This document shows positions 6,755-49,437 of a stretch of DNA of 64,000 nucleotides, piece after piece. Below the pieces are notes generated by a model. That model was not told where the DNA came from, made no database searches, and saw only the letters and a program-made list of their open reading frames with translations. Within the stretch, counting starts at the first letter, position 1. Every line of letters begins with the position of its first letter. The DNA comes from a virus. Taxonomy: Duplodnaviria; Heunggongvirae; Uroviricota; Caudoviricetes. The stretch lies in IMG/VR virus record IMGVR_UViG_2909314774_000001; one strand, written 5' to 3'. The position numbers and the translations under genes are program-made.

Positions 6755-9700
6755 ACAAGGATTTTTTTGAACATGGAACAGTTCAAGAAGAAAAAGTTAC
6801 CGCTGTTTATTGCAGGTGCGGGTGGTAAAAAAAGCAGCAAAAGCTCTAGCCGTACACCGGTTGAAGCCGACGATACCGTAAATTCTCGTGCAATGGCCGC
6901 TATCCTCGATCTTCTTGGGGAAGGTGTAATTGGCGGCTTGGTAAATGGCGCAAGATCTATTTTTGTCGACGATCTGCCGATTGTAAATGAAGACGGTTCC
7001 TCCAACTTCAGCGGAATCACATGGGATTTTCGCGACGGTTCGCAAGACCAGACTCCAATGTCTGGCTTTGATTTCGTTGAAACGCCTAAATCCGTCAATA
7101 TCCAGTTAAAAAAAACACATTATGTAACGGTTTCAATCGATAACGATGAAGCTGATCGGGTTCGTGTCATCATGAAGTTTCCTTCTTTGCGAAGCATAGA
7201 TAAAAAAACTGGTGACACGAACGGTACAACCGTTGAGTACAAGTTCCAGATAGCAAATGGCGACTCAACATTTGTAGATGTGGTCGCAGAAGGTGAAAAA
7301 AGCGTTGGCATTAAGCTAACAGCAAAGAAGACAGGTGTTTATTACCGTAGCTATGAGCTGAAGCTGCCTAAGCCTGGACGCGCGTACAAGGTTCGTGTAG
7401 TCCGTATTACCGATGATAACAGCAGCCAGTATCTCTATAACGATACATGGGTGGACTCAATAGGTGAGATTGTAGATACACCGATGAACTACCCAAACTC
7501 TGTGCTGGTGGGTCTGAAGGTTAATTCTGAGCAGTTTGGTAGCACCATGCCATCTCGTTCGTATTTGGTACGTGGATTAAAAATTCGCGTGCCGTCAAAC
7601 TACAACGAGGCCAGCAACACTTATGATGGTGTATGGGATGGCACTTTTAAGCTGTTGTCTTCTTCAAACCCCGCGTGGATTCTCTTTGATTTGCTTACCA
7701 ATGCTCGATATGGCCTTGGTCAGTATGTGTCGGAATCTATGATTGACCTCGGCCAGCTATACCAGATCGGTCGATATTGTGACGAAGAGGTTGATGATGG
7801 CTTTGGTGGTAAAGAGAAACGCTTTGCAATCAATACGCAGATCACCAGTCGACAGGACGCATACCGATTAATTCAGGATATTGCCGGTGCATTCCGCGGT
7901 ATGGTGTTTTGGGCTGGTGGCATGGTTAACATCATGCAGGATAGCCCATCAGATCCGGTAATGATGTTTACCAACTCTAACGTCAAAGATGGATTGTTTA
8001 CCTATAAAGGTTCTGCGCGTAAAGATCGCCCATCCGTTGCGCTCGTAACCTACAACAACAAGGAGGACGGTTATAAGCAAAACATCGAGTACGTTGAAGA
8101 TCAGGACGCAATGCGCCGTTATGGTGAGCGTAAGACAGAAGTCGTAGCATTTGGCTGTACAAGCCGAGGGCAGGCTCACCGAGTTGGTTTGTGGCTTTTA
8201 TATACCGCCAGAATGGAGTCGGATGTAATTACATTTACTGCCGGCTTAGACGCGTCATTTCTGATGCCTGGTGAAACCGTTCTGATTCAGAACAAATATC
8301 GCGCAGGCAAACGTAACTCAGGTCGAATTGTGGCGTTTACCAAAAACAGCGTCACACTCGATGCGCCGGTGTCGTTAGCCAAAGGCGGCTGCTTTATTCG
8401 AATACTGAATCAGGAAGGCAAAATCGTTGAACGCGATGTTCTTGAAACTGGCGAAAATATAACAAAAGTTACGTTTTCAAAATCCCTGTCTTCGGCTGAA
8501 ACGCCTGTTTTGAACGGCGTCTGGACTATTACAGAACCAGACCTCGAACCTATGCGCGTTCGCATCGTTAACATCGCGCAGGGGGAAACGCCGGGTAGCT
8601 TTGACATCACCGCTGTTGAGAACAATCCGTCTAAATATGAGGCAATCGACAATGGTGCAACGCTGATCCCGCAGAATACGACGGTATTGGACCCAACTTA
8701 CTCCAAGCCATCTAATCTGCAAATCACTGAAGGGACTTATCTCTCAAGCCCGGGCAACCTGTCAGTAAAACTGACTGCAACATGGGAAGGGAAATCTCCA
8801 GAGTATTGGATCAGTTGGCGACGTTCTGATGAAAACAATGTATCGAACTGGCAATCGGCGCGTGTAACCGAAGAGCAATACGAAATCGTTAATGTCGCGG
8901 AGAATGGACGCTACGACTTCCAACTGTATGCGGTTTCATTCAACGGTAAAAAAACAGAAATTATCAGTACCGTTTATCAGGTGCTGGGCACAATGACACC
9001 GCCGGATGCACCAACGTCATTAACGGCCGTTGGAGACTATCGTAATGTGATACTGAATTGGGTTAATCCAGATTCGGTGGACCTTGATCACATTAATGTT
9101 TACGCATCCCAGACCAACAATCTGGATACGGCGAAACTGATCGCAGAGTCTGCAAGCACCACCTTTACACATGCTGGTCTTGGGGATAGCGAAACGTGGT
9201 ATTACTGGGTTCGAGCATCGAACAAGCGAGGTATGTTAAGTCCTCCGAACTCAAACTTGGGTACAGAGGCGACAACTCGCGATGTACTGTCGTTCCTGAC
9301 TGGCAAAATTACATCTTCCGAGCTTGGTCAGGCTCTGCTTGAGGACATCAACAGCAAAGCCTCTCAAGAAGCAGTTGACGAGTTAAATGAGCATATCAAC
9401 CAGAGCGTCGAATCTTTGGAGGGGGCGGTAAACGACGTTAAGGAAGATATAGCTGAATTAGATAAGCAGTTCAGCGATAACCTCGCGGATTTTGAAATAA
9501 AATTCAACGAGCGTAGCGATGCTTTGGAGAACGCACAAACCGAGCTTAAAGGTGAGGTTTCGGCAACGATTGACAAGGTCAATGAAGCGTTTGAAAAAAT
9601 TGATGCTACTGATGCTGCAATTGTTGAAATCGAAAACACCGTATCTGAACACGATAAAGCTCTCGCTAATACAGTCGAGGCAATAAAGGCTGCAAGAGAT

Positions 9701-10041
9701 GAAGCGGCGGCTCTTATTGCTAAGGAAAGCGAGGCTCGTGTTGAAGGCGATGCTGCAAACGCTAAACAACTGGAAGTGTTGCAGTCAACGGTAGAGGAAA
9801 GCTCCGCTGCCGTTGAAGAAATGAAAAAGACGGTTGCAGAGGTCGATCGTGCCAGTGCAGAACTGACTACGAACATTGAGGCGTTAGCCAAAACAAATAT
9901 TGACCTGGCTCTTCGTCAAGATGAAGACCAGCACAAGCAGATGGTCAATAACGCGAAGATCGCAACAACACAGAAAACCTTTGCTGATGATATGTCTGCA
10001 ATGGCCACGAAGGTTGAGGAAATTCGGGTAATGACTCCAAC

Positions 10042-10545
10042 TTACTGATAGTGTTTTATGTTCAGATAATGCCCGATGACTTTGTCATGCAGCTCCACCG
10101 ATTTTGAGAACGACAGTGACTTCCGTCCCAGCCTTGCCAGATGTTGTCTCAGATTCAGGTTATGTCGCTCAATGCGCTGAGTGTAACGCTTGCTGATTAC
10201 GTGCAGCTTTCCCTTCAGGCGGGATTCATACAGCGGCCAGCCATCCGTCATCCATACCACGACCTCAAAGGCCGACAGCAGGCTCAGAAGACGCTCCAGT
10301 GTGGCCAGAGTGCGTTCACCGAAGACGTGCGCCACAACCGTCCTCCGTATCCTGTCATACGCGTAAAACAGCCAGCGCTGACGTGATTTAGCACCGACGT
10401 AGCCCCACTGTTCGTCCATTTCAGCGCAGACAATCACATCACTGCCCGGCTGTATGCGCGAGGTTACCGACTGCGGCCTGAGTTTTTTAAGTGACGTAAA
10501 ATCGTGTTGAGGCCAACGCCCATAATGCGGGCGGTTGCCCGGCAT
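10042..10545 (-). CDS. insB: IS1 InsB (transposase made as InsAB' by -1 frameshift)
   Basis: 167-aa frame matching IS1 InsB; the A6C slippery motif (TTAAAAAACTC on the coding strand) lies at 10481-10491 in the insA/insB overlap. Confidence 0.9.
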
Positions 10546-10739
10546 CCAACACCATTCATGGCCATATCAATGATTTTCTGGTGTGTACCGGGTTGAGAAG
10601 CGGTGTAAGTGAACTGCAGTTGCCATGTTTTACGGCAGTGAGAGCAGAGATAGCGCTGATGTCCGGCAGTACTTTTACCGTTACGCACCACGCCTTCAGT
10701 AGCTGAGCAGGAGGGACAACTGATGGAGATGGAAGCCAC
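10464..10739 (-). CDS. insA: IS1 InsA transposition regulator
   Basis: 91 aa [40 protein letters not shown]..., near-identical to canonical IS1 InsA as recalled; zinc finger CPSC...CSHC. Confidence 0.93.
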
Positions 10740-10905
10740 GGGAGCACCTCAAAAACACCATCATACACTAAATCAGTAAGTTGGCACCATTACCGAAATT
10801 CGCGTAGAAATTGGCGAAGACATTAAGGCCAGTATTCTGGAAGAGTCCACCGCTCGTGCCGATGGCGATGAAGCGTTGGCAAAGCGTGTCACTCAGCTGC
10901 AATCT

Positions 10906-11796
10906 AAGTTTGAAGGAGATATCAGCGCGGCGATTAGTACAGAGCAGGAGGCTCGTACATCTGCCGATGAAGCTCTGACGACACAGATCACTCAGCTTGA
11001 GTCGAAAGTAAGCAACGATATCGTCGCAGCTATTAAGGAAGAGCAAGAAGCCCGAGCAACGGAAGATTCGGCTCTGGCAAGCCAGATCACCCAACTTCAG
11101 GCAAAGGTTGATGATGATATTTCTGCTGCAATACGTAGTGAGCAGGAGGCTCGAGCAAGCGGGGACTCTGCGTTAGCCAAACAAATAAACCAGCTTCAGT
11201 CAAAGGTTGACGGTGATATATCCGCTGCCATCACTCAGGAGCAGGAGGCCAGGGCAAGTGCTGACCAGGCGCTCTCACGAGAAATTAACAGCCTGCGAGC
11301 ACAAACCGGAACTGATATTGCCGCAGCGGTTGCTGTAGAGACAAAAGCAAGGACTGATGCCGATAGTGCATTGTCTACCCAGATTACGTCTCTTACAGCA
11401 AAAGCTAATGATCTCGAGGCGTCTCTTGCCAGAGAAACAACGGCTCGTGCAGATGGTGATACCGCTTTAACAAAAGAGGTTTCAAGTTTAAAAGCACAGA
11501 CAGCGAAAGATATTAGTGCGGCCGTTGCAGTTGAAACGCAGGCTCGAACTGATGCTGACTCGGCGTTGTCGTCTCAGATCACCAAGCTGACCTCTCAATA
11601 CAAAGAGGATATTAAAGCGGCTGTAGCAACCGAAACGAAAACGCGTACAGAGCAAGATGCTGCATTGGCGACTCAAATCACAAACTTAGAGTCTCAAACG
11701 GCAGCCAACATTTCCGCGGCGGTAACAACTGAAACGACAGCGAGAACGCAGGCAGATAATGCTTTGAGTGGGCGAATCGATACTCTGAAAGCAGAG
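10906..11796 (+). repeat. nine tandem 99-bp (33-codon) coding repeats inside the J fibre gene
   Basis: Translation shows nine consecutive 33-aa units of the type K-V-D-x-D-I-S-A-A-I-x-x-E-Q-E-A-R-x-S-x-D-x-A-L-x-x-Q-I-T-Q-L-Q-(S/A). Confidence 0.85.
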
Positions 11797-12369
11797 GTGG
11801 ATGGAAATACCGCGACAATTCAACAGCAGGCAACAGCTATTGCTGATACCAACAAAAAAGTGTCAACCGCGTGGACGTTGAAAATGGAAACTTCAACGAG
11901 CGGAGGGCAGAAGTATGTTGCTGGTATTGCGCTTGGTATCGACACCACTGGCCTTTCTCAGTTTTTGGTGCAGGCTGACAGGTTTGGTTTGGTCAACTCT
12001 GTTAACGGGAAGATCACAACGCCATTTGTTATCGAAAACAGTATCGCCTATATGAATGGAGCGTATATCAAGGATGGCACAATCACCAATGCAAAAGTAG
12101 GCGATCTGCAATCTACCAATTTTGTTAGCGGTAGATCTGGATGGCGGTTCGGCAAAAATGGAACGCTTGAGATCAACGGTAATAGCGGCGGCAATGGGCG
12201 ATTGGTTATAAATGGTCAGCGGATTGACGTTTATGACGATAACAACGTCTTACGAGTAAGAATTGGCCGTCTGTGATGGTGGAAAAAAAATTTTATATCG
12301 GTAAAAATAGGTAAGTATTTACTTAATGGCGGGCAAGGATAGCCCGCCAAATCAAGGAGCATATTCAAC

Positions 12370-15300
12370 ATGTGGTACAGGGAAGGTACTATCACATTTA
12401 CACAGGGTAGCAATACTCTGGTTGGGGCAGGGACAGCCTGGAACGTAACAGCTAATGGTGTGTTGCCGGGGATGATCGTCATTGGCCCCGACAATAAGCT
12501 GTATGAGATCAAGCGCGTAACCAGTGATACGAACATTGTTCTCTCAGAACCTTATACCGGCGAAACTCAGTCTGAAGTTCCGTGCCGAATCATTACGACC
12601 TATGAAGGCGACTTAACACAGTTTAGCGCGCGCTTTACAGCACTAATGTCGCGTATGTCGGCTGATTCCAAGTCCATGCGCAGTTGGTTGACTGCTCTGG
12701 ATGAGGTGACAATCGAGCGTGAAGACGGTACAGAAGTGACCGTTAAGCCGCTAATGCAGATCGTCAACGAGCACAACGAAAACGTTGAGTGGTATAAAAA
12801 TAACACTGACGCGATTGATGCTGCTGGCGACAAAGCTCGTGAGGCGGCGGCCAGTGCTGCCGCAGCAGCAGAAAGCGCCAATATCGCTGGAGAAAAAGCC
12901 TCTCAAGCGTCTCAAAGTGCATCCGCTGCGGCATCCTCACAAAGTGCCGCAAGTGCGAGTGCAACTGCTGCGAAAAAATCTGAAACGAATGCTGCAGCGT
13001 CACAAAAATCTGCAGCCACTTCTGCATCCACCGCGACCACGAAAGCGTCAGAAGCTGCCACCTCAGCCAGAGATGCGTCGGCTTCAAAAGAGGCGGCAAA
13101 ATCATCAGAAACGAGCGCAGCCTCCTCGGCAACAGCGGCAGGCAATTCCGCGAAGGCGGCAAAAACGTCCGAGACGAACGCCAGGTCTTCTGAAACGGCA
13201 GCGGGACAGAGTGCCTCAGCTGCGGCAGGCTCAAAAACAGCGGCTGCGTCGTCTGCCAGTGCCGCGTCAACAAGTGCCGGGCAGGCCTCATCCAGTGCCA
13301 CCGCCGCCGGAAAATCGGCAGAAAGTGCCGCATCGTCTGCTTCAACAGCCACAACGAAGGCTGGCGAAGCCACTGAACAGGCCAGCGCAGCAGCGAGGTC
13401 TGCTTCCGCAGCGAAGACATCCGAAACGAACGCGAAAGCGTCGGAAACCCGTGCAGAATCCTCAAAAACGGCAGCCGCATCGTCCGCCAGTTCGGCAGCG
13501 TCATCGGCATCATCTGCGTCTGCTTCAAAAGATGAGGCGACCAGACAGGCGTCAGCAGCGAAGGGCAGCGCCACGACGGCATCCACGAAAGCAACAGAGG
13601 CGGCAGGCAGTGCGACGGCAGCATCTCAGAGCAAAACTGCTGCTGAATCCGCTGCGACCCGTGCGGAAGCTGCTGCTGATCGTGCTGAAGAGATTGCCGG
13701 TGCAGTTGCGATGGAAGACGCAAGCCTTACAACTAAAGGTGTTGTGAAACTTAGCAGTGCTGTCGATAGCACCAGCGAATCACTGGCTGCAACTCCAAAG
13801 GCAGTTAAAGCTGCGAATGACAATGCGAATAGCCGATTGGCGAAGAATCAGAATGGCGCTGATATCCCAGACAAGGGCCGCTTCCTGAGTAACATTAATG
13901 TTTACAGCAAAGGTGAAGTGGATAAGAAAAAGGGGATGCGAAAATACACTTTCTCTGCTCCTGCAAATGCAGTAAGCGGTAAGTGGTATCCTGTAGTCTT
14001 TCGCCGAACTGGTGGTGGCACAGATGAATTAGCCTCACGAGTGGTTATCACCACTTATTCCTCAGCTGGCGGATACGCCATGAATAATTGTGAATTTAAT
14101 GGGTTTGTTATGCCTGGCGGTTGGTCTGATCGCGGTTCATATGCGGCTGGTTTTTTCTCAATATATTCTACTGCTGAGCGAGCTATACACTCGATTATCG
14201 CAAGCGTGAAAGATGATGATTTGTGTAGTGTATTTTACGTTGAGACAAGAGCATTCCCTATCCAGATTTTTGCTGAGGAAGGATTAAATGTGATTGTTCC
14301 AACGGCTGATTATGCAGTTGGTCAAACCACTTATAAGTGGGGGGCAACTGATCCTTTATCAGAAAGTACGAATGCACAGATAATTTTGGACTTTAAAAAT
14401 GGACGAGGTTATTACTGTTCACATCCATTTATTTCAAGTCTTTCAGGAAATGCTGCTACAGCCACGAAATTGCAGACGGCAAGATCTATCGGTGGAGTTG
14501 TTTTCGACGGTTCTGCAAATATTAACCTTCCAGGTGTAAACACTACGGGTAATCAGAACACCACTGGTAATGCTGCAACTGCTACAAAACTTCAGACTGC
14601 AAGAAAAATATCCGGTGTTCCATTTGATGGTTCTACTGATATCACTTTAACCGCCGCGCATGTTGCCGCTTTCGCAAGAAGAGCAACAGGGTCATATGCT
14701 GATGCTGATGGCGGCGTGCCGTGGAATGCTGAATCTGGTGCTTATAATGTAACTAGAACGGGCGACAGTTATATTCTTGCCAACTTTTATACTGGTGTAG
14801 GTAGTTGCCGTACGCTTCAAATTAAGGCTAACTATAAAAATGGTGGGTTGTTTTATCGTTCATCTCGCGATGGCTATGGTTTTGAAAGTGGTTGGGAGCA
14901 GGTTTACACGACTGGATTTAGACCTCAGCCGGCTGATATAAACGCACCAACCGCTGCCGACGGATGGTTAAATAGTGGTAACGGAACAGCATTTACGACT
15001 GCTCAGTTTATAACGTGGCTAAATAATCAGGGTGCATTTTCAAACAAATATTGGATTGCACGGTGCTCATGGTATTACGCCAACAATAATTATATAGACG
15101 ACACTGGTTGCGGTAGGATCGATCTATCTGGTTCCGTGATTGAGGTGTTTAGTAATAAGACAACAAGCAATTACACTATTCGTGTTACAACGACAACAAC
15201 ATCGGGTCATGGTGGCGTTAATAATGCGGAATTTATTTATGTGTACAATGGCAGTGATTACTCGCCAGGCTGGCGTCGTTCTTATAATACTAGAAACAAA

Positions 15301-17655
15301 CCAACAGCTTCTGATGTAGGAGCATTATCGCTTTCTGGAGGAGCGTTAACTGGCGGATTAACTGCTGCTGGCGAGATTATTTCAAAATCGGCGAATGGTC
15401 TGCGCATTGCCTACGGAAACTACGGATTCTTTATCCGAAACGATGGTTCAAGCACATACTTCATGTTGACCGATTCGGGTAACAGCCTGGGAACCTATAA
15501 TAGTTTAAGGCCGCTTATCATTAACAATGCCAATGGTGCTGTTAGGATCGGTAATGGACTCAATGTTACTGGCGGCATCAATGGTAGTTTGAACGGTAAT
15601 GCTTCAACAGCTACGAAGTTGCAAACAGCGAGAAACATCAATGGTGTTAAGTTTGATGGTTCAGGCGATATCAATATTAATACATTGGTATCTCGTGGCC
15701 GAGTTACGGCGTTAAGCGGCTCTACTCAAGGCACTGCTGGCATTCAAATGTATGAGGCGTACAACAATAGCTACCCGACCACGTATGGCAACGTATTGCA
15801 CATGAAAGGTGCGAGTGCTGCTGGTGAGGGCGAGTTGCTTATTGGCTGGAGCGGAACGGATGGTGCTCATGCACCGGTTTATGTTCGTTCACGCCGTGAT
15901 ACTTCGACAGCGAATTGGTCTGGTTGGGCGCAGGTCTATACCACTGCTCATAAACCCACAGCGAAAGATGTTGGGGCTGCACAGACGTTTAGCGCGTCAT
16001 ACAGTACTGGGGCTGGCAACTGGACTACCGCTGAATTTATCGCATGGCTGAAGGAGCGTGGTGCTTTCGCCGTACCGTATTGGATGATGAAAGGCTCTTG
16101 GTCATATGCCGACAATAAAATTATCACTGATACAGGTGTCGGCAATATTTGTCTTGCTGGTGCGGTTATCGAGGTTTTAGGTCACGAAGGCGCAATGACC
16201 ATCCGAGTTACTACGCCTACAACGACAACCGGAGGTGGTATTGCCAGTGCTCAGTTCACCTATATTAATCACGGTAGCGCGTATGCCCCTGCCTGGCGCA
16301 GAGATTACAACACGACTCTCAAACCAACTGCGGCTGATGTTGGTGCGTTGCCGAGCGGTGGCGGCACACTTTCCGGCGCACTCACATTATCTATGGTTGC
16401 GCCGAGTGTTCAATTACGAGGGCAAGGTACTGATACCAGGCAGTACATCATGGCTTACAGAACCGATGGTGCTACATCATGGTATGTAGGTAAGGCTAAC
16501 AACGGCTCTGATAGCGCGATGCTCTGGAACTATACGGGGGCAAACGGAGTCGAGTTGGCTGCCGATGGCAATGTGCGCATTAATGCGAAGGGTAAGCAGT
16601 TTACGTTCGCAAACAACGGCAATTTGGGGCTTGTCGCTTCGTTGGATCAAAGTTCTGTTCCACAGGGCATTTACCATCAAGTTGCTATGAACTCTGGAAC
16701 CAGAGGTGCTAAATCCTATCTTCGTAAGTTCAGGGGTGGGAACGCAGATACCGTCTGGCATGAAACCGTTCAAGACGGAAATTACCGACTTGCTACTGGT
16801 GACACTGATTCTCAGGGTGAAATGTACCTTTCGACTTCGGGTTGGGTTCGTTTCCGTGGTGAAGTTGTTTCAGAATCGGCCAATGGTTTGCGAGCCGCAT
16901 TCGGTAACTTCGGTTTCTTTATCCGAAATGATGGAACGAACACTTATTTCCTTTTGACAGCTTCAGGTGACAAGTACGGTTCTTGGAATGGTTTGCGGCC
17001 TCTGACTATCAACAATGTCAGTGGCGCAGTGTCAATGAGCAACGGACTAACTGTTGCTGGTGGACTTAATGTAACGAGCGGAAACCTGAAAATCTCGACG
17101 TCCAGCACATCGTGGATCGACATGAGAGCAGGCGTAGCCCTTTCGAACTCTTCAGCTGTTTCGACGTCATCCGCTTCGGCGATAGTCCGTCAAGAACACG
17201 CCGATCGCCATTTCATTCTTGGCGGTTTGGGTAACTCGCAGTTCGGGATTTACATGATTAACAAATCTCGAACTGCGAACGGCACTGACGCTGCCGCTTA
17301 TCTCCAGAACGACGGCACTTGGGTTTGCGCAGGCAACGGTAGTTTTAATGACGTTTACATCCGTTCCGACCGCCGTAGTAAGCGCAATATTCGCAAAATT
17401 GAGCGGGCGCTCGACAAGCTGGAGCAGATCGAAGGTGTTCTCTACGAGATTCAGGTCTGTGGCCGTTATGAGCAGTCTGGTGGCCTCATCGCTCAGGATG
17501 TCCAGAATGTTCAGCCTGAACTGGTAACGGTCGACCATAACGATCAGTCAGGAGAGCCTCGTCTGCGTCTTAACTACAACGGCGTTATCGGCATGTTGGT
17601 TGAGGCTGTCAAAGAGCTGCGCGAGGAAGTGCGCGAACTGAAGGCAAAAATGTAA
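12370..17655 (+). CDS. side tail fibre protein (lambda Stf-like N-terminus and shaft, C-terminal S74-type intramolecular chaperone)
   Basis: Residues ~160-480 closely resemble the Ala/Ser-rich shaft of lambda Stf (KTSETNAAASQKSAATSASTATTKASEAATSARDA...ATPKAVK). C-terminal ~120 aa (SDRRSKRNIRKIERALDKLEQIEGVLYEIQ...LVEAVKELREEVRELKAKM) looks like the autoproteolytic chaperone domain found in endosialidase-type fibres. RBS CAAGGAG precedes the ATG. Confidence 0.85.
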   Translation: MWYREGTITFTQGSNTLVGAGTAWNVTANGVLPGMIVIGPDNKLYEIKRVTSDTNIVLSEPYTGETQSEVPCRIITTYEGDLTQFSARFTALMSRMSADSKSMRSWLTALDEVTIEREDGTEVTVKPLMQIVNEHNENVEWYKNNTDAIDAAGDKAREAAASAAAAAESANIAGEKASQASQSASAAASSQSAASASATAAKKSETNAAASQKSAATSASTATTKASEAATSARDASASKEAAKSSETSAASSATAAGNSAKAAKTSETNARSSETAAGQSASAAAGSKTAAASSASAASTSAGQASSSATAAGKSAESAASSASTATTKAGEATEQASAAARSASAAKTSETNAKASETRAESSKTAAASSASSAASSASSASASKDEATRQASAAKGSATTASTKATEAAGSATAASQSKTAAESAATRAEAAADRAEEIAGAVAMEDASLTTKGVVKLSSAVDSTSESLAATPKAVKAANDNANSRLAKNQNGADIPDKGRFLSNINVYSKGEVDKKKGMRKYTFSAPANAVSGKWYPVVFRRTGGGTDELASRVVITTYSSAGGYAMNNCEFNGFVMPGGWSDRGSYAAGFFSIYSTAERAIHSIIASVKDDDLCSVFYVETRAFPIQIFAEEGLNVIVPTADYAVGQTTYKWGATDPLSESTNAQIILDFKNGRGYYCSHPFISSLSGNAATATKLQTARSIGGVVFDGSANINLPGVNTTGNQNTTGNAATATKLQTARKISGVPFDGSTDITLTAAHVAAFARRATGSYADADGGVPWNAESGAYNVTRTGDSYILANFYTGVGSCRTLQIKANYKNGGLFYRSSRDGYGFESGWEQVYTTGFRPQPADINAPTAADGWLNSGNGTAFTTAQFITWLNNQGAFSNKYWIARCSWYYANNNYIDDTGCGRIDLSGSVIEVFSNKTTSNYTIRVTTTTTSGHGGVNNAEFIYVYNGSDYSPGWRRSYNTRNKPTASDVGALSLSGGALTGGLTAAGEIISKSANGLRIAYGNYGFFIRNDGSSTYFMLTDSGNSLGTYNSLRPLIINNANGAVRIGNGLNVTGGINGSLNGNASTATKLQTARNINGVKFDGSGDININTLVSRGRVTALSGSTQGTAGIQMYEAYNNSYPTTYGNVLHMKGASAAGEGELLIGWSGTDGAHAPVYVRSRRDTSTANWSGWAQVYTTAHKPTAKDVGAAQTFSASYSTGAGNWTTAEFIAWLKERGAFAVPYWMMKGSWSYADNKIITDTGVGNICLAGAVIEVLGHEGAMTIRVTTPTTTTGGGIASAQFTYINHGSAYAPAWRRDYNTTLKPTAADVGALPSGGGTLSGALTLSMVAPSVQLRGQGTDTRQYIMAYRTDGATSWYVGKANNGSDSAMLWNYTGANGVELAADGNVRINAKGKQFTFANNGNLGLVASLDQSSVPQGIYHQVAMNSGTRGAKSYLRKFRGGNADTVWHETVQDGNYRLATGDTDSQGEMYLSTSGWVRFRGEVVSESANGLRAAFGNFGFFIRNDGTNTYFLLTASGDKYGSWNGLRPLTINNVSGAVSMSNGLTVAGGLNVTSGNLKISTSSTSWIDMRAGVALSNSSAVSTSSASAIVRQEHADRHFILGGLGNSQFGIYMINKSRTANGTDAAAYLQNDGTWVCAGNGSFNDVYIRSDRRSKRNIRKIERALDKLEQIEGVLYEIQVCGRYEQSGGLIAQDVQNVQPELVTVDHNDQSGEPRLRLNYNGVIGMLVEAVKELREEVRELKAKM

Positions 17656-17721
17656 TCAAGGTGAATGGTGAGGGGCCACCCTCACCAATTCAGGATATTC
17701 ACATCAAAAAGGAGATTAGAT

Positions 17722-18504
17722 GTGCCAATTGTCGGTGTTCCCGGTTGGATTGGGTCTTCGGCTGTCAGTGTGACAGGCCAGAGATGGATGAGTGCGGCTC
17801 GAACGGCGGTGCAACTGCCAGCGGCTGGTTCAATGTCTCAAATGGCCGGGCGATCTAAAGAAGTTCAGTACAGCATCGGTGCGAATCATAACTACAACAA
17901 AGACACACTGATCAACTATTTAAAATCCCAGGGGGCGACGCCAGTCGTTGTTACCATTACAGGGGATCTGGTGTCGTCCAGTAGCGGCGTGCCATGTTTA
18001 GATTTCCCGAGTTCACTTACCAACTCTTATATCAGCCTTGTAATCAACGCAGGTGTGACTGTCTATGGACGCGGTGGCAATGGTGGTAGTAACGCTGCCG
18101 GTGCTGCTGGTGGTAACGCAATTAATAATGGCATCGGTACACGCTTGCGTATTACGAATAATGGTGCAATCGCTGGAGGTGGCGGCGGCGGTGGCGGCGG
18201 TAACAGGGGTAAACTAATATTTGGTGGTGGCGGTGGTCGCCCATTCGGTGCTGGTGGGTCTTCCTCTCATATGAGTTCCGGTGCAACTGCTGGTACTATT
18301 TCCGCTCCTGGTAAAGGATCTGTTGGTGAGGGGTCTCTTAGTGCATATACAGGCGGTTCGGGTGGTAATGTCGGTGCTGCTGGAGGAAGATGTAATACTC
18401 AAGGTAACGGTACAGAATATAACGGCGGAGCAGCTGGTAAAGCCGTAACTGGCAACGCGCCTACATGGACTAAAGCTGGGGCAATTTACGGCGCTCATGT
18501 GTAA
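17722..18504 (+). CDS. glycine-rich protein, possible gp38-like tail-fibre adhesin
   Basis: GTG start with AAAGGAG RBS 7 nt upstream; C-terminal half is made of poly-Gly motifs (GGGGGGGGGNRGK, FGGGGGRPFGAGG, GGSGGNVGAAGG) separated by short variable segments; sits immediately 3' of the fibre gene. Confidence 0.45.
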   Translation: MPIVGVPGWIGSSAVSVTGQRWMSAARTAVQLPAAGSMSQMAGRSKEVQYSIGANHNYNKDTLINYLKSQGATPVVVTITGDLVSSSSGVPCLDFPSSLTNSYISLVINAGVTVYGRGGNGGSNAAGAAGGNAINNGIGTRLRITNNGAIAGGGGGGGGGNRGKLIFGGGGGRPFGAGGSSSHMSSGATAGTISAPGKGSVGEGSLSAYTGGSGGNVGAAGGRCNTQGNGTEYNGGAAGKAVTGNAPTWTKAGAIYGAHV

Positions 18505-18578
18505 GTACTTACCTACCAAGTGTGGGCGTTTTATGATATAAAACCGCCATCCCGATTTGACGATTCATGGAGGAAATA

Positions 18579-18902
18579 ATGTCGAACGAGATGGCAGGCG
18601 TAACGCCAGAGCAGGTAGAGCGCATTGCCGCTATCGTTGCGCGTGAAGTTGTCGGCAAATTAGGTAAGGAGTTGCGTGAGGAAATTGGCCAGGAGGTCAA
18701 CGACCAGCTCAAAACCTACTTTGGCGATATGACGCCTTCGCAACACAGCATTCAGCACTCCAACCTGGACAAACTACTTAATCGGCTAGACGCCATCTCC
18801 AGCGGGTTCTTTGGCGGCATTATCTCAAAGATAACGTCGTTCCTGATTACCGCGCTGCTGCTGGGTCTGGCCGCTTATGGCGTGAAGAATGGACTGCAAT
18901 AA
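18579..18902 (+). CDS. small membrane protein, holin candidate
   Basis: GGAGG RBS; hydrophilic N-terminus then a C-terminal hydrophobic helix (FFGGIISKITSFLITALLLGLAAYGV); first gene of the putative lysis cassette. Confidence 0.35.
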   Translation: MSNEMAGVTPEQVERIAAIVAREVVGKLGKELREEIGQEVNDQLKTYFGDMTPSQHSIQHSNLDKLLNRLDAISSGFFGGIISKITSFLITALLLGLAAYGVKNGLQ

Positions 18903-18914
18903 CAGGAGATCAAG

Positions 18915-19608
18915 GATGAAAACTCCGAGAGGCATTCGTAATAACAACCCTGGCAACCTCGACAAAGGTTCGCCGTGGCAGGGGCTAATCGACAACCCTG
19001 CCGAACCGCGCTTTTGCACGTTTAAAGACCCTGTTTGGGGGATTCGTGCGCTGGCGGTGACTCTAATTACCTACCACGATAAACGTCGCGCAAAAGACGG
19101 CACAAGTATCGATACCATTCGTGAAGTTATTGAACGTTGGGCACCGCCGAATGAAAACAACACTGACGCCTACATTAATGAGGTGTCTAAAGCCGTTGGT
19201 GTAACCGCAGACATGATCATCGATCTGCATGATTACGACATTCTTCGACCTTTGGTTGAGGCAATCATTCGCCATGAGAATGGGCGAGGTCCGCTAAAAA
19301 CGCTGAACACCTGGTATGCGGCAGAAGTTATTGAGGAAGGTCTGCGTCGAGCTGGCGTCGTTAAGCCGGTGAAAACCGTGAAGGCTGTTCCTGTAACTAA
19401 AGAAACTGCAGGCGCAACTGTTACAGCAGGTATTGGTCTGGCGCAGCTGGCCGATGTTATGCCGCAGGTTTCCGCTGCTATGGATAAAGCACAAGGTCAT
19501 ATCTCTAGCGGGGATACAGTACGCATCATCTTCGGTATTGCCACTATTGTTGTGGCAGGATTCATTGCCTGGTCGCAGGTAAGAAAACACCAGAAAGGGA
19601 TGGTCTAA
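18915..19608 (+). CDS. lysis-cassette protein with C-terminal membrane anchor (possible cell-wall hydrolase)
   Basis: AGGAG RBS; N-terminal RNNNPGNL...W motif region; C-terminal TM helix IIFGIATIVVAGFIAW; position between holin candidate and spanins. No catalytic motif I can name with certainty. Confidence 0.3.
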
Positions 19609-19609
19609 T

Positions 19610-19861
19610 ATGCTAGGCAGCCTGATGACAAAGCTAAAAGTTGCTTTGATTACGCTGGCTGCCGTTCTTTTCGTTCTTGTCGGCGCTTACACGATGGGCG
19701 GGAATGCGGCGCGACGAGCAATGGAAGAGAAGGCAAAACAGGAAGACAGAAAACGACTTCAAAACACAGTGAAAGTGGTGAATGAGACGAGCAGTAAAAT
19801 ACGTCAGAAAGATGCTTCTGCCGTTCATCGTGAGTTGTATGATAAGTGGGTGCGTCATTAA
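19610..19861 (+). CDS. i-spanin (Rz-like)
   Basis: 83 aa, N-terminal TM helix (LKVALITLAAVLFVLVGAY) followed by charged coiled-coil-like region; overlapped at its 3' end by a lipoprotein ORF in another frame. Confidence 0.6.
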   Translation: MLGSLMTKLKVALITLAAVLFVLVGAYTMGGNAARRAMEEKAKQEDRKRLQNTVKVVNETSSKIRQKDASAVHRELYDKWVRH

Positions 19862-19997
19862 ACCACAAACAGCCAGCGTGTTGTTCTGCGATGGGGCTGA
19901 GCCTATCTATATCAGCAATAATGATGTAATGACTGAAGAAACCGAACGCCAAATCCTTTTTCACAATACGATGGGAGAGAGGGTTTGTGGTTGGTGA
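19812..19997 (+). CDS. o-spanin (Rz1-like outer membrane lipoprotein)
   Basis: Signal peptide MLLPFIVSCMISGC with lipobox ISG-C; overlaps the last ~50 nt of the Rz-like gene out of frame, the classic Rz/Rz1 arrangement. Confidence 0.5.
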   Translation: MLLPFIVSCMISGCVIKPQTASVLFCDGAEPIYISNNDVMTEETERQILFHNTMGERVCGW

Positions 19998-22225: not shown

Positions 22226-23932
22226 ATGGAATCGATAGAAGTATTTTTAAAAAATTTTTTGGACTCAGATCATCGGGTTGCTGTCATAAAAGGAAATTGG
22301 GGAGTAGGTAAAACGCATTATTGGAATAGCTTTTATACTAAACATTCTAAAAAATTAGATTTTAATGCATATTCATATGTTTCTTTGTTTGGAATAAATT
22401 CTATTGGAGACATTAAAAAAGCTCTTTATCATTGTGCCACACCAATTAATGAAAAGAAATATAAAGAACTGATTTTATCTGAAACGGATCGAACTATGAT
22501 TCGTTATAGAAATGGGTTTTGGGGATGGTTGAAATACAACTCCTTGTCAAAATTTTTAATACATTTTGGAAAGAACGATTTTTTTGGGTTCAAAACTGAT
22601 AATCTGCTGTCATCTCTTGAGTATAAATTTGTTAATAATTATTTGGTTTGCATTGATGATATTGAACGAAAAGGTAGTGCGCTAGAAATTAAAGAGATTA
22701 TGGGGGTAATTGATGAGTTGGCAAGAAGAAAAAATTGCAAGGTTGTTCTAATATTAAATGAAGATAACTTACATGAAGAAACTGCACAACAACAGTTTTT
22801 AGAGTATAGAGAAAAAATAATTGATGTGGAAATAAAATACGATCCCACGCCTGAGAAAAACTTAAGAAAAGTTTTTTATGAGACTGACCCTGATTTTCTT
22901 TTGTTAAAAAACCTAGTAAATGATTTAAACATCAAAAACATTAGAATATTAAATAAAATAAAATCATCTCTAGTTATATTTAGAGATGTGCTAAAGTTAG
23001 CAGAGGATAAGGTTAGAGAAAGTTTTATTAATAGATTGGTCTTATTTTCAGTGGTTTACTATTTTGGTGTTCCTAGCGTTGATTATGCTTCATTTAAGGA
23101 GTCAATCAAAAATATACATGCATTCGACTATATGTTAGATGATAAAGATGAAAAGGAAGAAGTTAACTCTGTATATTCATTTGTTAATAGCCTTGATGTT
23201 ATTTATGAACGAGCAGAAAGTGCTTTCGATGATGATATAGATTTTTACCTTAAGAACGGTTATGTTTCTTCTGAAAGCAATATTCTAAATATAATAAAAG
23301 AAAAAAATGAACAATATAGAGATAATAGGGTTTTATGTGAGGTTTATAAAATTTGGGATGTTTTTAGAAACTCTTTTAAAGATAATGAATCAGAGTTTAT
23401 TTTTCAAATTGAGCGCGTAATTAACGATAGTCTGTTGCGTATACCAATTGGACAGTTCGTAGGTTTAATAAATGTCCTAATTAAATTGGATAGAGATTGT
23501 AATAATATTATAGAGGCATATGCAGATGCTTTTGTTAATAAAGAAAATGCGTATGCTACATTTAATTCTTTGCGAGTAGAGATCTTCGGAAATGAAGAAT
23601 TAGGTTTCAGAATTGAAAAAAAATTGAAAGATAGAAATCCAGATGACTATAACTTAGATAAAATTATAAAAAAAATAGCTGGTGGAAGATTTAACCATAG
23701 TGATGTGAATATTCTTAACAGTTTTTCTAAAGATGATTACGTAAACTGGATATTATCCTGTGATCAGGATGCTTTGAATTTAGTAGAAGAGACTATGCTC
23801 AAGTTCAAGGGTATGCAACACCCGACAGACGAACAGAAGAGCATCACTGATAAAGCAATAGAAGCTTTGGAGGAAGTTGCTTCAAAATCAACACTTAATA
23901 AGCTGCGTGTTAATAAAATACTCAATCATTAA
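22226..23932 (+). CDS. KAP-family-like P-loop NTPase in low-GC cargo region
   Basis: Walker A GNWGVGKT at residues ~23-30 and Walker B-like LVCIDDIER ~110 aa downstream (KAP NTPases typically hhhhDDLDR); gene is markedly AT-rich, with Asn/Lys/Ile-rich codon usage unlike its neighbours. Confidence 0.55.
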   Translation: MESIEVFLKNFLDSDHRVAVIKGNWGVGKTHYWNSFYTKHSKKLDFNAYSYVSLFGINSIGDIKKALYHCATPINEKKYKELILSETDRTMIRYRNGFWGWLKYNSLSKFLIHFGKNDFFGFKTDNLLSSLEYKFVNNYLVCIDDIERKGSALEIKEIMGVIDELARRKNCKVVLILNEDNLHEETAQQQFLEYREKIIDVEIKYDPTPEKNLRKVFYETDPDFLLLKNLVNDLNIKNIRILNKIKSSLVIFRDVLKLAEDKVRESFINRLVLFSVVYYFGVPSVDYASFKESIKNIHAFDYMLDDKDEKEEVNSVYSFVNSLDVIYERAESAFDDDIDFYLKNGYVSSESNILNIIKEKNEQYRDNRVLCEVYKIWDVFRNSFKDNESEFIFQIERVINDSLLRIPIGQFVGLINVLIKLDRDCNNIIEAYADAFVNKENAYATFNSLRVEIFGNEELGFRIEKKLKDRNPDDYNLDKIIKKIAGGRFNHSDVNILNSFSKDDYVNWILSCDQDALNLVEETMLKFKGMQHPTDEQKSITDKAIEALEEVASKSTLNKLRVNKILNH

Positions 23933-31636: not shown

Positions 31637-31711
31637 GATGGTGTAGCTCAGCGGTAGAGCAGTTGGCTGTTAACCAACTGGTCGGTGGTTCGAATCCACC
31701 CACCATCGCCA
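31637..31711 (+). tRNA. tRNA-Asn (GTT)
   Basis: Hand-folded cloverleaf: acceptor GATGGTG/CACCATC, D-arm GCTC-AGCGGTA-GAGC, anticodon arm GTTGG-CTGTTAA-CCAAC, T-arm GGTGG-TTCGAAT-CCACC, encoded CCA. Confidence 0.85.
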
Positions 31712-31716
31712 ATTTA

Positions 31717-31803
31717 GGGGAGTTAGTCCGTAGGGGCAGCGGGGTAGACTGTAAATCTACTGTCATTGCGACTCGGGTGGTTCGACTCCATCACTCCCCA
31801 CCA
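31717..31803 (+). tRNA. tRNA-Tyr (GTA)
   Basis: Acceptor GGGGAGT/ACTCCCC, anticodon arm GTAGA-CTGTAAA-TCTAC, long variable arm, T-loop TTCGACT, encoded CCA; resembles E. coli tRNA-Tyr. Confidence 0.8.
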
Positions 31804-31807
31804 AATT

Positions 31808-31883
31808 GCCGGTTTAGCTCAGTTGGTAGAGCGCCTGCCTTGTAAGCAGGATGTCAGCGGTTCGATCCCGTTAACCGGCACCA
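31808..31883 (+). tRNA. tRNA-Thr (TGT)
   Basis: Acceptor GCCGGTT/AACCGGC, D-arm GCTC-AGTTGGTA-GAGC, anticodon arm CCTGC-CTTGTAA-GCAGG, T-arm AGCGG-TTCGATC-CCGTT, encoded CCA. Confidence 0.8.
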
Positions 31884-32203
31884 ACACAACAGGTAAGAGC
31901 ATTGGGCGAATCGGCGATACTGACCACAAGCCCGTAAATCGATAGAGTCAGACCAGTGCTCTTACCGTTGTGAGGAAGTGCAGCTCTTTGAAGCAACCAG
32001 AAGATAAGCATCTGGCTTCACAACACAACGATAAGATCATTACGGTTAATCGTCGTTCATGTGCACAATGACTGGTCGAAAGGTAGTGATCTTACCGTTG
32101 TGATGAATGCACAGGCTGATGTGCCGCAACTACAGTAGTGCGCGCTTTGCGGGGCTTGCTACAACCCTGTGTCGGAGTTCAGCACCGACCATCACAATAG
32201 CTG

Positions 32204-32290
32204 GAGAGTAGGGAGCATGGTGCTCAAGCGGTCTTGAAATCCGTCCCATTGTGCAAACGATGATGGTTCGATTCCATTACTCTCCGCCAG
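32204..32290 (+). tRNA. divergent tRNA-Ser-like gene (anticodon TGA), possibly degenerate
   Basis: Acceptor GGAGAGT/ACTCTCC, T-arm GATGG-TTCGATT-CCATT and CCA end are good; anticodon loop CTTGAAA as in tRNA-Ser(UGA), but the D-arm and anticodon stem fold poorly. Confidence 0.45.
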
Positions 32291-32481: not shown

Positions 32482-33744
32482 TTACTTTGCATAGTCGCCC
32501 AATTTTAATATTTCGCGCTTATATTCATTAACCATGCTACTGGATTCAGTATAAATTCGATTTAAAAGATTATCGTTATCTTTATTTTCATTTATCTTAA
32601 TTAGTGCTAATTTATATTCATAGTCATCAAATGCCACAATTAAATGGTGGCCTGGGATTATATCTTCGTCACTCTTAAAGTATATATCTTCAAGTATGTA
32701 ATCTAGTTGATTAGATTTTCTTTTCTCGATGTAATCTTCAGCCATAGCTATTACATCATTCCTGTCATTTAACCTGTTTTTTTCGGAAGGCACATCTTCG
32801 TAATGTTGCACGATTGAACAACCAATAAGGCGTGGGATGTAAACGTCAAAATGAGTAACTCTATCATTCGCGGTTTTAAGTAGTTCCTCAAAGTAGTTTC
32901 TTACATGTAAAGGCAACTTCTCAAAGTAATCATTAATTATAGGAGAACAAGGAGTTTTATAATTCATAAGAACCGACGGTACGAGCTTTGGGTGTCGAAA
33001 CATCCAGTCCCTTTTAACGTCCGATGGAACATAATAACTTTTAATGATATTATCAAAATAATTTATCATTCGAGATTTGAATATTTTGTTGAATCTAAGG
33101 TTTATGAATGTATCCAGATAAGGCATATTTGAATAAGCATCATCAAAAAATATTTCATCATTGAAAAAATCATATTTATTCAATAAACAACACAGTTTTT
33201 CCGAATTAATATGTTCACAATAATCGATTTTTAATCCAAAGATAGCAATGATCAACTTCATCTGAGGTGGGATTTTAAAAATTAATTGTGACACATACGC
33301 TCTTTTTTCCTTGAGACATTCCCCATCAATATAAAATGAACCATCCACATACTCAAATATATTAATAATATGCTTCACATACTGTATTACCTCATGCTGT
33401 CTTACCAATGGGTAATATAGTCTATGTAACTCATCGCTGTTTAAATTAATTTTGTGTTTATCGATAATTTGTTTTGCAAGAAGACATAACTCATCATGTT
33501 GATTTAATAAGGAATCAAACCATTGTTTAAATGCACTCTTTCGCATTTCGAACAATGATTCAGTTGTTAATTGAAGGGCTGAAAAAGCTGCTTTTGCACT
33601 TTTTCTCGCTTCGTAGGCATTCCATGCTGTTGCTATAAAAGCAAATGCTGTAGCCAATGTTCCAACAGTTTGACCATTTAAAACAACCCAATCCCAAAAA
33701 ATGACGGTGAGCAGTAGTATAATAATGAAAATTAAAAAAGGCAT
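32482..33744 (-). CDS. membrane-anchored protein of unknown function in low-GC cargo region (abortive-infection-like candidate)
   Basis: 420 aa; two N-terminal hydrophobic helices (FLIFIIILLLTVIFWDWVV, GTLATAFAFIATAW) then a large Asn/Tyr/Asp-rich soluble domain; opposite strand to neighbours, AT-rich, own promoter region and terminator. Confidence 0.5.
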   Translation of the reverse strand: MPFLIFIIILLLTVIFWDWVVLNGQTVGTLATAFAFIATAWNAYEARKSAKAAFSALQLTTESLFEMRKSAFKQWFDSLLNQHDELCLLAKQIIDKHKINLNSDELHRLYYPLVRQHEVIQYVKHIINIFEYVDGSFYIDGECLKEKRAYVSQLIFKIPPQMKLIIAIFGLKIDYCEHINSEKLCCLLNKYDFFNDEIFFDDAYSNMPYLDTFINLRFNKIFKSRMINYFDNIIKSYYVPSDVKRDWMFRHPKLVPSVLMNYKTPCSPIINDYFEKLPLHVRNYFEELLKTANDRVTHFDVYIPRLIGCSIVQHYEDVPSEKNRLNDRNDVIAMAEDYIEKRKSNQLDYILEDIYFKSDEDIIPGHHLIVAFDDYEYKLALIKINENKDNDNLLNRIYTESSSMVNEYKREILKLGDYAK

Positions 33745-48363: not shown

Positions 48364-49437
48364 ATGGCAAAAGGAAAATCCGCACTGGCACTTGCTCTGA
48401 AAAAGAAAATCGGTAGCAACGACGAAATTCAGAAAGTAACTCATTGGATTGATACAGGCTTTCCACCGTTAAACAAAGCTATTTCTGGTCGTTACGATGG
48501 CGGCTTCCCATGTGGTCGTATCGTCGAAGTATTCGGTCCTCCAAGTGCAGGGAAAACGTTCCTTGCAACAGCAGCGATGATCTCCGCTCAAAAACAAGAT
48601 GGTCTGGCGGTATTCCTCGATCATGAAAACAGTTTTGACGTTGGCCTGGCTGTAGCCAATGGCCTGAACGCAGATGAGGATGACGGTCAGTGGGTATACA
48701 AGCAGCCAGATACCTTCGAAGACTCTGTAGAGTTGATCGGCACAATACTTAAATTGGTTCGTGATGAAGAGCTTATCCCCGAATCAGCACCTATCTGTAT
48801 CGTGGCTGACTCTCTTGCGTCTATGGTTCCGAACTCCAAAGCCGAGAAGTTCGAAAAGATGGCTGAAGGCACTGCCAAAGACAAAGATCAGCTAAACATG
48901 AACGACAATACGGCACTGGCTCGTGCGACGAGTGCGAACTTCCCTACTCTGGCTTTGTGGGCACGCAAATACAACGCCTGCATCATCTTCTTGAATCAGG
49001 TTCGCACAAAAATCGGTGTAATGTTTGGCGACCCTACTACGTCGCCAGGTGGAGATTCACCGAAGTTCTACGCTTCTGTACGTATCCGTCTTGGTGCATC
49101 GGTGATGAAGGATGGTAAAGAGAAGATCGGCCAGGACGTAGGCGCAGAATGCATCAAAAACAAAGTTGCACCACCGTATGGCAAATGCACCTGGAAATTC
49201 TACTTCGATCCTACTCGTGGCCTCGACGTTATCGAATCGCTCGTCGAGTACATGCTGGAAGAAGGATACCTGCCAAAGAACGCCAGCGGGCGAGTTGAAA
49301 TTGGTGACAAGAAATACACCAAATCGCAGATCGTTGAGATGTATCGGGAGAAGCCACTGGCTGAAATCATTGCGGCTTTGCAGGCAATCGACGACCGAAG
49401 AGCAAAAGACAACCCCACCGAGTCAGTAGAAGAGTAA
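48364..49437 (+). CDS. RecA/UvsX-like recombinase
   Basis: Walker A GPPSAGKT and RecA-fold core (VFLDHENSFD, IIFLNQVR); 357 aa; followed by intrinsic terminator 49441-49468. Confidence 0.7.
   Translation: MAKGKSALALALKKKIGSNDEIQKVTHWIDTGFPPLNKAISGRYDGGFPCGRIVEVFGPPSAGKTFLATAAMISAQKQDGLAVFLDHENSFDVGLAVANGLNADEDDGQWVYKQPDTFEDSVELIGTILKLVRDEELIPESAPICIVADSLASMVPNSKAEKFEKMAEGTAKDKDQLNMNDNTALARATSANFPTLALWARKYNACIIFLNQVRTKIGVMFGDPTTSPGGDSPKFYASVRIRLGASVMKDGKEKIGQDVGAECIKNKVAPPYGKCTWKFYFDPTRGLDVIESLVEYMLEEGYLPKNASGRVEIGDKKYTKSQIVEMYREKPLAEIIAALQAIDDRRAKDNPTESVEE

Follow-up and report, generated by a model that had tools for sequence, protein, structure and literature searches.

For lambda J and T5 pb5, the central-fibre tip remains indispensable to irreversible binding and DNA ejection in phages that also bear side fibres, and a C-terminal domain is commonly required for the folding of trimeric fibres. 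The phage-plasmid Cyrano (pLF82), which encodes a J protein, makes siphovirus virions (PMC9928086). Some SSU5-group phage-plasmids have been described whose sole differences are insertion sequences (IS) gained or lost, as have IS-borne cargo insertions (bioRxiv 10.1101/2025.09.12.675607). In the latter report, ISEc9-blaCTX-M-15 insertions avoid the structural-gene region, whereas in the element analysed here a cargo-free IS lies inside a structural gene. The sequence very probably records a hop of IS1 into codon 1085 of the 1575-codon J-like gene of an SSU5/Cyrano-type phage-plasmid, which would leave the tail-tip protein truncated and the particles defective.

The analysed window (64,000 nucleotides in all) covers 64 kb of a ~110-kb replicon. 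Most of its genes encode proteins 93–100% identical to those of Cyrano, in conserved order, the lowest full-length matches being to a small membrane protein (73%) and CYRAN_34 (88%). Over part of J, SSU5 itself shows 79% identity. Genes for ParA, holin, endolysin, Rz and the tail are found on one replicon with a Rep3 initiator. Judged from this gene content, the replicon is an SSU5/Cyrano-group E. coli phage-plasmid, in agreement with the preliminary description, which had suggested a phage-plasmid. Genes for Phage_tail_L and JAB+NlpC/P60 (K) lie upstream of the interrupted gene, with TMP and Phage_min_tail on L002. The order TMP-M-L-K-I-J, with J last, agrees with the Cyrano annotation and is shared by E. 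coli D4 plasmid A. In both relatives J is annotated as an intact 4728-nt CDS, while here it is interrupted by IS1 at codon 1085. The downstream side fibre differs as well, being P1-S-like in Cyrano and having a gp37/gp38-type distal module here. This separate gp37/gp38-type side fibre probably contributes to host recognition; it is independent of J, and some adsorption could survive through it. J aside, all Cyrano genes that recur in the window align full-length and without stops. Long-term decay was rejected, as no other lesion was present in the Cyrano-shared genes of the window.

The ORF upstream of the insertion had been called a clear lambda J homologue, and domain searches bear this out. 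In Pfam it scored 105.6 bits for FNIII-A_GpJ, 123.8 for Phage-tail_3 and 27.0 for fn3 (gathering cut-offs of 27, 23 and 25, respectively), and the lambda J structure 8iyk_J matched its hub with E=6.7e-124. The F2-pyocin fibre matched the J-like protein with E=5.8e-154. Residues 3–837 of lambda J (PDB 8iyk, 8xcj) align to hub residues 19–861, and residues 839–971 align to the Phage_Tail_Tip domain; between these two regions the present protein, unlike lambda J, has an inserted coiled-coil shaft of ~560 residues. The alignments stop at residue 971. Residues 972–1132 of lambda J, the LamB-binding end, have no counterpart in the present protein, which ends just past the Phage_Tail_Tip domain and carries no lambda-type C-terminal receptor-binding domain. 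Its C-terminus, "...RVRIGRL", matches the ends of 9l9p_S (...RVQIGRL) and 9ze4_N (...RVHIGNL), while the alignment with the F2-pyocin fibre extends only up to the residues that precede this motif. On these alignments, the likeness of the interrupted gene to J covers the hub and fibre base, and not lambda's receptor-binding domain.

The inserted DNA is a complete IS1 (Table 1), whose length, exact boundaries and open minus-strand insA and insB frames are those proposed in the preliminary description. It has the hallmarks of the family: ~768 bp, imperfect inverted repeats of ~23 bp that begin with GGT(A/G)ATG and match each other at 20 of 23 positions, and an 8-bp target duplication (the family range is 8–9 bp). 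The A6C motif, earlier located within 10481–10491, was found there, and a conceptual −1 shift at this motif fuses insA to insB' to give a 232-aa InsAB' transposase. Both the IS1 copy and its transposase are, as far as sequence tells, intact. The 8-bp direct repeat previously noted at the two ends was recovered; a 9-bp duplication is excluded by the flanking bases. A single inverted-repeat pair is present in the whole 64 kb, with no second IS1, and a composite transposon was rejected on this ground. No matching inverted-repeat pair was ever found in shuffles, and 163 plasmid records, along with phages Cyrano and CMS-2020a, carry the empty site as a single gap-free match; the IS1 insertion in the J-like gene is therefore confirmed as real and not a chance resemblance. 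Apart from the AT-rich core of GAAATTCG, nothing pointed to an AT-rich target preference, local GC content being 46–50% compared to 47% for the gene.

Table 1. Coordinates of the J-like gene, the IS1 element and other features discussed in the text (positions are those of the window).
Feature	Position	Strand	Remarks
J-like tail-tip/central-fibre gene, 5' part	6773..10026	+	codons 1-1084 and 2 nt of codon 1085
J ORF as present, 1091 aa	6773..10048	+	residues 1-1086 identical in register to intact J, then MTPTY and stop
Target-site duplication GAAATTCG, 8 bp, left copy	10019..10026		single-copy in empty-site relatives
Complete IS1 element, 768 bp	10027..10794	-	intact insA, insB', A6C motif and both inverted repeats
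IS1 right inverted repeat (IRR), GGTAATGACTCCAACTTACTGAT	10027..10049		
insB' reading frame	10042..10545	-	frame open, overlaps insA
insA, 91 aa, GTG start	10464..10739	-	frame open
A6C (AAAAAAC) programmed -1 frameshift motif of IS1	10482..10488	-	
Promoter-like site partly within IRL, pointing into insA	10760..10787	-	consensus match only
IS1 left inverted repeat (IRL), GGTAATGGTGCCAACTTACTGAT on minus strand	10772..10794		
Target-site duplication GAAATTCG, 8 bp, right copy	10795..10802		
J-like gene, 3' remnant	10803..12276	+	last nt of codon 1085 through codon 1575 and stop
Phage_Tail_Tip domain (PF09327, formerly DUF1983) in remnant	11815..12219	+	aligns to lambda J residues 839-971
Side-fibre gene (1761 aa, gp34/gp37-like) and gp38-type adhesin gene	12370..18504	+	downstream of J, same strand
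Lysis cassette	18579-19994		after gp38-type adhesin gene
Rep3 initiator	52665-53720		

Removal of IS1 with one repeat copy (10027–10802, 776 bp) joins the flanks seamlessly onto intact 1575-aa homologues and yields a single ORF (6773..12276) of 1575 codons. The continuous gene and the single J homologue expected in the preliminary description were thus obtained, while its ~1.8-kb-codon count was ~15% high. The restored protein has 3 differences in 1575 residues from WP_072652154.1, the "phage tail protein" of E. coli D4 plasmid A, and is 99.5% identical to protein J of Cyrano (CYRAN_20). As present, the two pieces of J are in different frames (776 mod 3 = 2) and share one only once the element is removed; it is in this sense alone that the frame "resumes" after IS1, as had been stated, although the downstream piece does reach the J C-terminal region and its Phage_Tail_Tip domain.

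Translation of the interrupted gene now enters the right end of IS1 for 7 codons, the final MTPTY and the stop being read from IS1. The resulting product keeps what the 5' part encodes, i.e., the FNIII-A_GpJ, Phage-tail_3 and fn3 hub domains together with ~220 residues at the start of the coiled-coil shaft, and loses the distal ~490 residues, which comprise coiled-coil repeats of ~33 residues and the C-terminal Phage_Tail_Tip domain encoded by the 3' remnant. The tip protein is, as suggested earlier, truncated, but the description of the missing part as its receptor-binding end is interpretive, because this part aligns to lambda J 839–971 and not to the LamB-binding C-terminus. All domains with a match in the lambda J hub are retained, and tails might still assemble.

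The favoured explanation runs as follows. Very probably, an ordinary IS1 transposed into codon 1085, duplicating 8 bp of its target, and translation of J has since then terminated within IS1, leaving a 1091-aa protein made of the hub and the proximal coiled coil. Upon induction, particles without a complete central fibre would be tail-defective, or incapable of irreversible binding and DNA ejection. Loss of infectivity is thus plausible from the gene structure, and virion production by the present element is predicted to be impaired. IS1 may also exert polarity on the same-strand genes at 12370–19994, lowering the expression of side-fibre, gp38-adhesin and lysis functions; this suggestion follows from general IS1 behaviour and from the lack of consensus promoters in the intergenic regions downstream of J. 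The replicon would persist by its Rep3, ParA and toxin-antitoxin plasmid functions, and the element probably survives as a plasmid only. The event looks recent, since the J flanks are 99.5–99.9% identical to intact alleles, IS1 and its duplication are both perfect, and the remaining shared genes in the window are undamaged.

It is improbable, though arguable, that truncated J is sufficient, such that tails assemble on the intact hub, the gp37/gp38-type side fibres recognise the host, and the element is infective, perhaps with an altered host range. All hub domains are encoded upstream of the break, a complete side fibre with a gp38 adhesin follows immediately downstream, and the distal half of J is a variable module among related plasmids, and so exchangeable. 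However, the gene is kept full-length in 164 related plasmids, and 1575-aa members dominate the 90%-identity protein cluster, which argues for selection on the whole J protein. Going by lambda J and T5 pb5, the tip of the central fibre would be needed despite the side fibres; the dependence of trimeric fibres on C-terminal domains for folding points the same way, and polarity of IS1 could cut side-fibre expression too. There is only a minute chance that the split gene works as two pieces, with the remnant expressed from a hybrid promoter at the IS1 end and an internal start, and its product joining the truncated N-terminal part. A consensus scan revealed no outward promoter from IS1, even though IS1 ends reportedly give rise to hybrid promoters in certain settings (Prentki et al. 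1986). From 10780 onwards the remnant frame is open, but no in-frame start backed by a Shine–Dalgarno (SD) sequence was found in it: the first possible one, TTG at 10876, has a negligible SD of −2.1 kcal/mol (−5 to −9 kcal/mol at 4 of the 6 reference gene starts scored in the window), and the first in-frame ATG is 130 codons before the end. No natural two-gene version of J was seen among the sampled relatives. Given that neither a credible start codon nor an SD sequence is present, the 3' remnant is probably untranslated. Its independent expression was rejected, with neither an SD-backed start nor an outward promoter-like site in evidence. Rescue via recombination of the coiled-coil repeats around IS1 was likewise rejected, as the DNA repeats flanking the element are short and imperfect (≤27 nt, 66–89% identity) and form no tandem DNA array.

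Could the insertion have been created during assembly, by misplacing in the plasmid an IS1 that resides at another genomic locus? E. coli genomes carry many IS1 copies (a median of 11 each), and neither PLSDB nor the 5426 complete RefSeq E. coli genomes searched contained the exact J–IS1 junction. Yet misassembly would not produce a precise full-length IS1 between perfect 8-bp copies of a sequence that relatives have only once at this site. An identical 1091-aa product is encoded on 3–4 public short-read contigs, and the contig in GCA_022406745.1, an independent short-read assembly, carries the J–IS1 left junction and ends 57 nt inside IS1. Since short-read contigs encode the truncated product too, and the contig that was examined breaks off within the element, an artefact of assembly is unlikely, and we give it hardly any credence. 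Quite doubtful, too, is the more far-reaching proposal that the insertion was a selected "taming" step of early phage-to-plasmid conversion and not neutral decay. If it were true, one IS1 hop would have removed the central-fibre tip and, by polarity, damped the side-fibre, gp38 and lysis cassette, confining an SSU5-type phage-plasmid that is otherwise intact to existence as a plasmid only. Other truncated alleles, such as the 1199-aa WP_436798118.1, a member of the same protein cluster that is encoded on a 110.9-kb contig, would then reflect recurrent inactivation of J.

With a simple IS1 knock-out as the preferred reading, region 6773–12276 should be annotated as one IS1-disrupted J-like tail-tip fibre pseudogene and not as two separate "tail protein" genes, and predictions of spread by infection should treat the element as a probably defective phage-plasmid. 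It adds one more data point to the IS gain and loss by which SSU5-group phage-plasmids are known to vary. The event is an ordinary IS knock-out and raises no new question; it would have wider import only if a population survey found tail-tip genes to be hit above chance expectation.

The IS1 copy is itself of a common type. From its ends, which seemed to depart slightly from canonical IS1, it had been suspected to be an isoform. This is correct in the trivial sense that it is a common non-IS1A variant, but its ends are not unusual: all 768 bp are matched at 100% identity by many records annotated "IS1 family transposase" in E. coli chromosomes and plasmids, and an unusual isoform was rejected, identical copies being widespread. 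In length, inverted repeats, insA (91 aa), insB', A6C shift, 232-aa InsAB' and 8-bp duplication it shows no substantive difference from known IS1. Partial matches to copies annotated IS1A were 91.7% identical, and those to copies annotated IS1X2 were 94.6% and 98.2% identical.

A 768-bp IS1 element was located at positions 10027-10794 by direct reading of positions 9900-10950, followed by a script check. Its terminal repeats had identical bases at 20 of 23 positions and formed the single such pair across the 64-kb window; in a shuffled-sequence control, none of the sequences gave two inverted-repeat matches. The sole promoter-like match of the IS1 region lay partly within the left inverted repeat and was directed into insA. 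A 9-bp target repeat was ruled out by the adjoining bases. Many copies on E. coli chromosomes and plasmids were 100% identical to this one across all 768 bp, and the best IS1 copy was at least 99% identical in 749 records. Over partial matches, identity was 91.7% to copies annotated as IS1A, and 94.6% in one search and 98.2% in another to copies annotated as IS1X2. The preliminary description had considered the ends atypical and possibly those of an isoform; differences do exist, but since fully identical copies are widespread, they are those of a common isoform.

The element interrupts a J-like tail-tip gene (positions 6773-12276). The open reading frame starting at ATG 6773 terminates within IS1 (stop at 10046-10048), giving a 1091-aa product in which residues 1-1086, as in intact homologues, are followed by MTPTY. 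The 3' open frame spans 10780 to 12276. When positions 10027-10802 were removed in silico, a single reading frame of 4728 nt was obtained; at 1575 codons, it is shorter than the ca. 1800 codons counted earlier. The J frame had also been said to resume after the element; this holds once the 776 bp are removed, but with the element in place the frame changes between the two pieces (776 mod 3 = 2). Only three residues set the restored protein apart from WP_072652154.1, which is encoded on E. coli D4 plasmid A by a CDS of 4728 nt with the annotation “phage tail protein”. The two pieces were 99.5% and 99.6% identical to CYRAN_20, the “tail host specificity protein J” of Cyrano (pLF82), an SSU5-group phage-plasmid.

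IS1 entered at codon 1085, ~220 residues into the coiled-coil shaft, severing ~490 distal residues from J. No plausible in-frame restart was found in the 3' remnant (10803-12276), where the earliest candidate, TTG 10876, has a negligible Shine-Dalgarno sequence, and the earliest in-frame ATG lies 130 codons before the end. Continuity of J translation is lost, and the product is truncated to 1086+5 residues.

Features of the IS1 element, the J protein, and downstream genes
Feature	Position or size	Strand	Details
IS1 left end		plus	begins GGTAATGACTCCAACTTACTGAT
IS1 right end		read on minus	begins GGTAATGGTGCCAACTTACTGAT
Direct repeat GAAATTCG	10019-10026 and 10795-10802		flanks IS1 on both sides
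insA	10464-10739	minus	open, 91 aa, GTG start
insB' frame	10042-10545	minus	overlaps insA
AAAAAAC slippery motif	10482-10488	minus	conceptual -1 shift gives 232-aa InsAB'
J hub	~860 aa
J coiled-coil shaft	~560 aa		~33-residue repeats
J Phage_Tail_Tip domain			extends to conserved “...RVRIGRL” end
gp34/gp37-like fibre	12370-17655	same as J	1761 aa, Peptidase_S74 chaperone domain
gp38-type adhesin	17665-18504	same as J
Lysis cassette	18579-19994	same as J

The gene closes the TMP-M-L-K-I block. The N-terminal piece matched the Pfam families FNIII-A_GpJ, Phage-tail_3, and fn3, and the C-terminal piece matched Phage_Tail_Tip (PF09327, formerly DUF1983), each exceeding its gathering score. Residues 19-861 aligned to residues 3-837 of lambda J (8iyk, E=6.7e-124), while a search of solved structures gave a stronger match to the F2-pyocin fibre (E=5.8e-154). 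The C-terminal piece aligned distally in 9l9p_S and in the F2-pyocin fibre; in lambda J it matched only residues 839-971, and the LamB-binding residues 972-1132 have no counterpart here. Together, these alignments define an architecture of hub, shaft, and Phage_Tail_Tip domain. In related plasmids (Yersinia pestis pMT1 and phage-plasmids of Klebsiella and Enterobacter), conservation at 75-78% nucleotide identity was confined to the 5' ~2600-3300 nt of J, the distal shaft and tip being replaced. Such variability is indirect evidence of a modular distal fibre with a role in specificity. The J match in Shigella sonnei plasmid CP022461.1 was just 84%, in two pieces.

A 1200-nt query joining both J flanks aligned as one ungapped piece, at 99.7-99.9% identity, to plasmids and phages; at least 80% of it was covered in 163 plasmid records and in phages Cyrano and CMS-2020a, so the flanks belong to a single J homologue. 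The site GGTTGAGGAAATTCGCGTAGAAATTGG occurs once in the D4 plasmid. Ungapped empty sites and a single-copy target are the classic proof of a simple transposition. The exact J-IS1 junction was found neither in PLSDB nor in 5426 complete RefSeq E. coli genomes. The identical 1091-aa product was present on three to four contigs in NCBI and Logan assemblies, and contig JAJPFX010000047.1 (GCA_022406745.1) carries the same junction and ends 57 nt inside IS1, as short-read assemblies break at repeats. The 90%-identity J cluster (E. coli, Shigella sonnei, and E. albertii) has 1980 members, mostly of 1575 aa; intact J is clearly the norm. Other shortened alleles in the cluster include WP_436798118.1 (1199 aa, on a 110.9-kb contig) and alleles of 919 and 1463 aa that some records mark as partial. 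J disruption may recur in other plasmids.

An assembly artefact is contradicted by the independent recovery of a perfect IS1 whose single-copy target site is perfectly duplicated, and by the ungapped empty site in relatives. Truncated J might suffice if the host were recognised by side fibres; this is possible but disfavoured, as full-length J is conserved among relatives. A J working as two pieces would lack expression signals, and recombinational rescue through the shaft repeats is unlikely, the DNA repeats being only short and imperfect. The IS1 hit is most simply a loss-of-function mutation. IS anatomy, the 8-bp duplication, the restored frame, and intact homologues agree in confirming a J-like gene split by IS1, and the original interpretation is essentially correct, with minor corrections of numbers and wording.

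Lambda J and T5 pb5 are needed for irreversible adsorption and DNA ejection. The truncated J trimer may misfold, or yield tails lacking the distal fibre; by analogy, both steps would then fail, and the element would be maintained via plasmid functions. IS1 insertions can exert polarity on downstream genes. Since no consensus σ70 promoter was found in the intergenic gaps, polarity on the immediately downstream side-fibre, gp38, and lysis genes is conceivable. A G+C-rich hairpin (GGCGGGC-AAGGATA-GCCCGCC, ~12326-12346) between the J stop and the side-fibre start has no T-run and is therefore not a canonical intrinsic terminator. The side-fibre module (12370-18504) is mosaic: 97% identity to the Cyrano P1-S-like fibre covers the first ~501 aa only, after which the protein switches to a gp34/gp37-like shaft with the Peptidase_S74 domain. 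Cyrano lacks the T2-type gp38 adhesin gene that follows here; it is unusual for an S74 intramolecular chaperone to be paired with a separate gp38 adhesin.

The window belongs to an SSU5/Cyrano-type phage-plasmid and carries genes for tail, side fibre, holin, endolysin, Rz/Rz1, toxin-antitoxin pairs, ParA, Rep3 initiator, helicase, primase, ligase, DnaE, integrase, and repressor. Most were 93-100% identical to Cyrano proteins; the lowest full-length matches were a small membrane protein (73%) and CYRAN_34 (88%). All Cyrano genes with a counterpart aligned full-length and stop-free, J being the sole broken gene. A recent event is indicated by flanks near-identical to intact alleles and by the lack of further lesions. 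IS knock-out of prophage genes is routine, and no component is new: the IS1 copy is a common one, the J-like gene is well represented, and the phage-plasmid group has been characterised. The chief value lies in annotating J as a pseudogene and the element as a probably defective phage-plasmid. Cyrano, with J intact, makes siphovirus particles (PMC9928086), so the lineage is otherwise competent. In a survey of SSU5-group phage-plasmids, some members differed solely by IS gain or loss, and cargo-bearing insertions avoided the structural region (bioRxiv 10.1101/2025.09.12.675607); the present IS1 is cargo-free and lies inside that region.

RecA (48364-49437) is 357 aa in the window versus 779 aa in Cyrano, whose residues ~77-486 have no counterpart here, suggesting that an intein or homing element is inserted in Cyrano and that the window has the empty allele. 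Two accessory hot spots differ from Cyrano: a 568-aa KAP/STAND-like P-loop NTPase (22226-23932) replaces CYRAN_30, and a 420-aa ORF without a match in Pfam (32482-33744, minus strand) replaces the CYRAN_41/43 region; these may be defence genes or morons. A tRNA cluster at 31637-32289 holds four genes (Asn, Tyr, Thr, and Ser), whereas Cyrano is annotated with Asn, Thr, and Ser only at the equivalent place.
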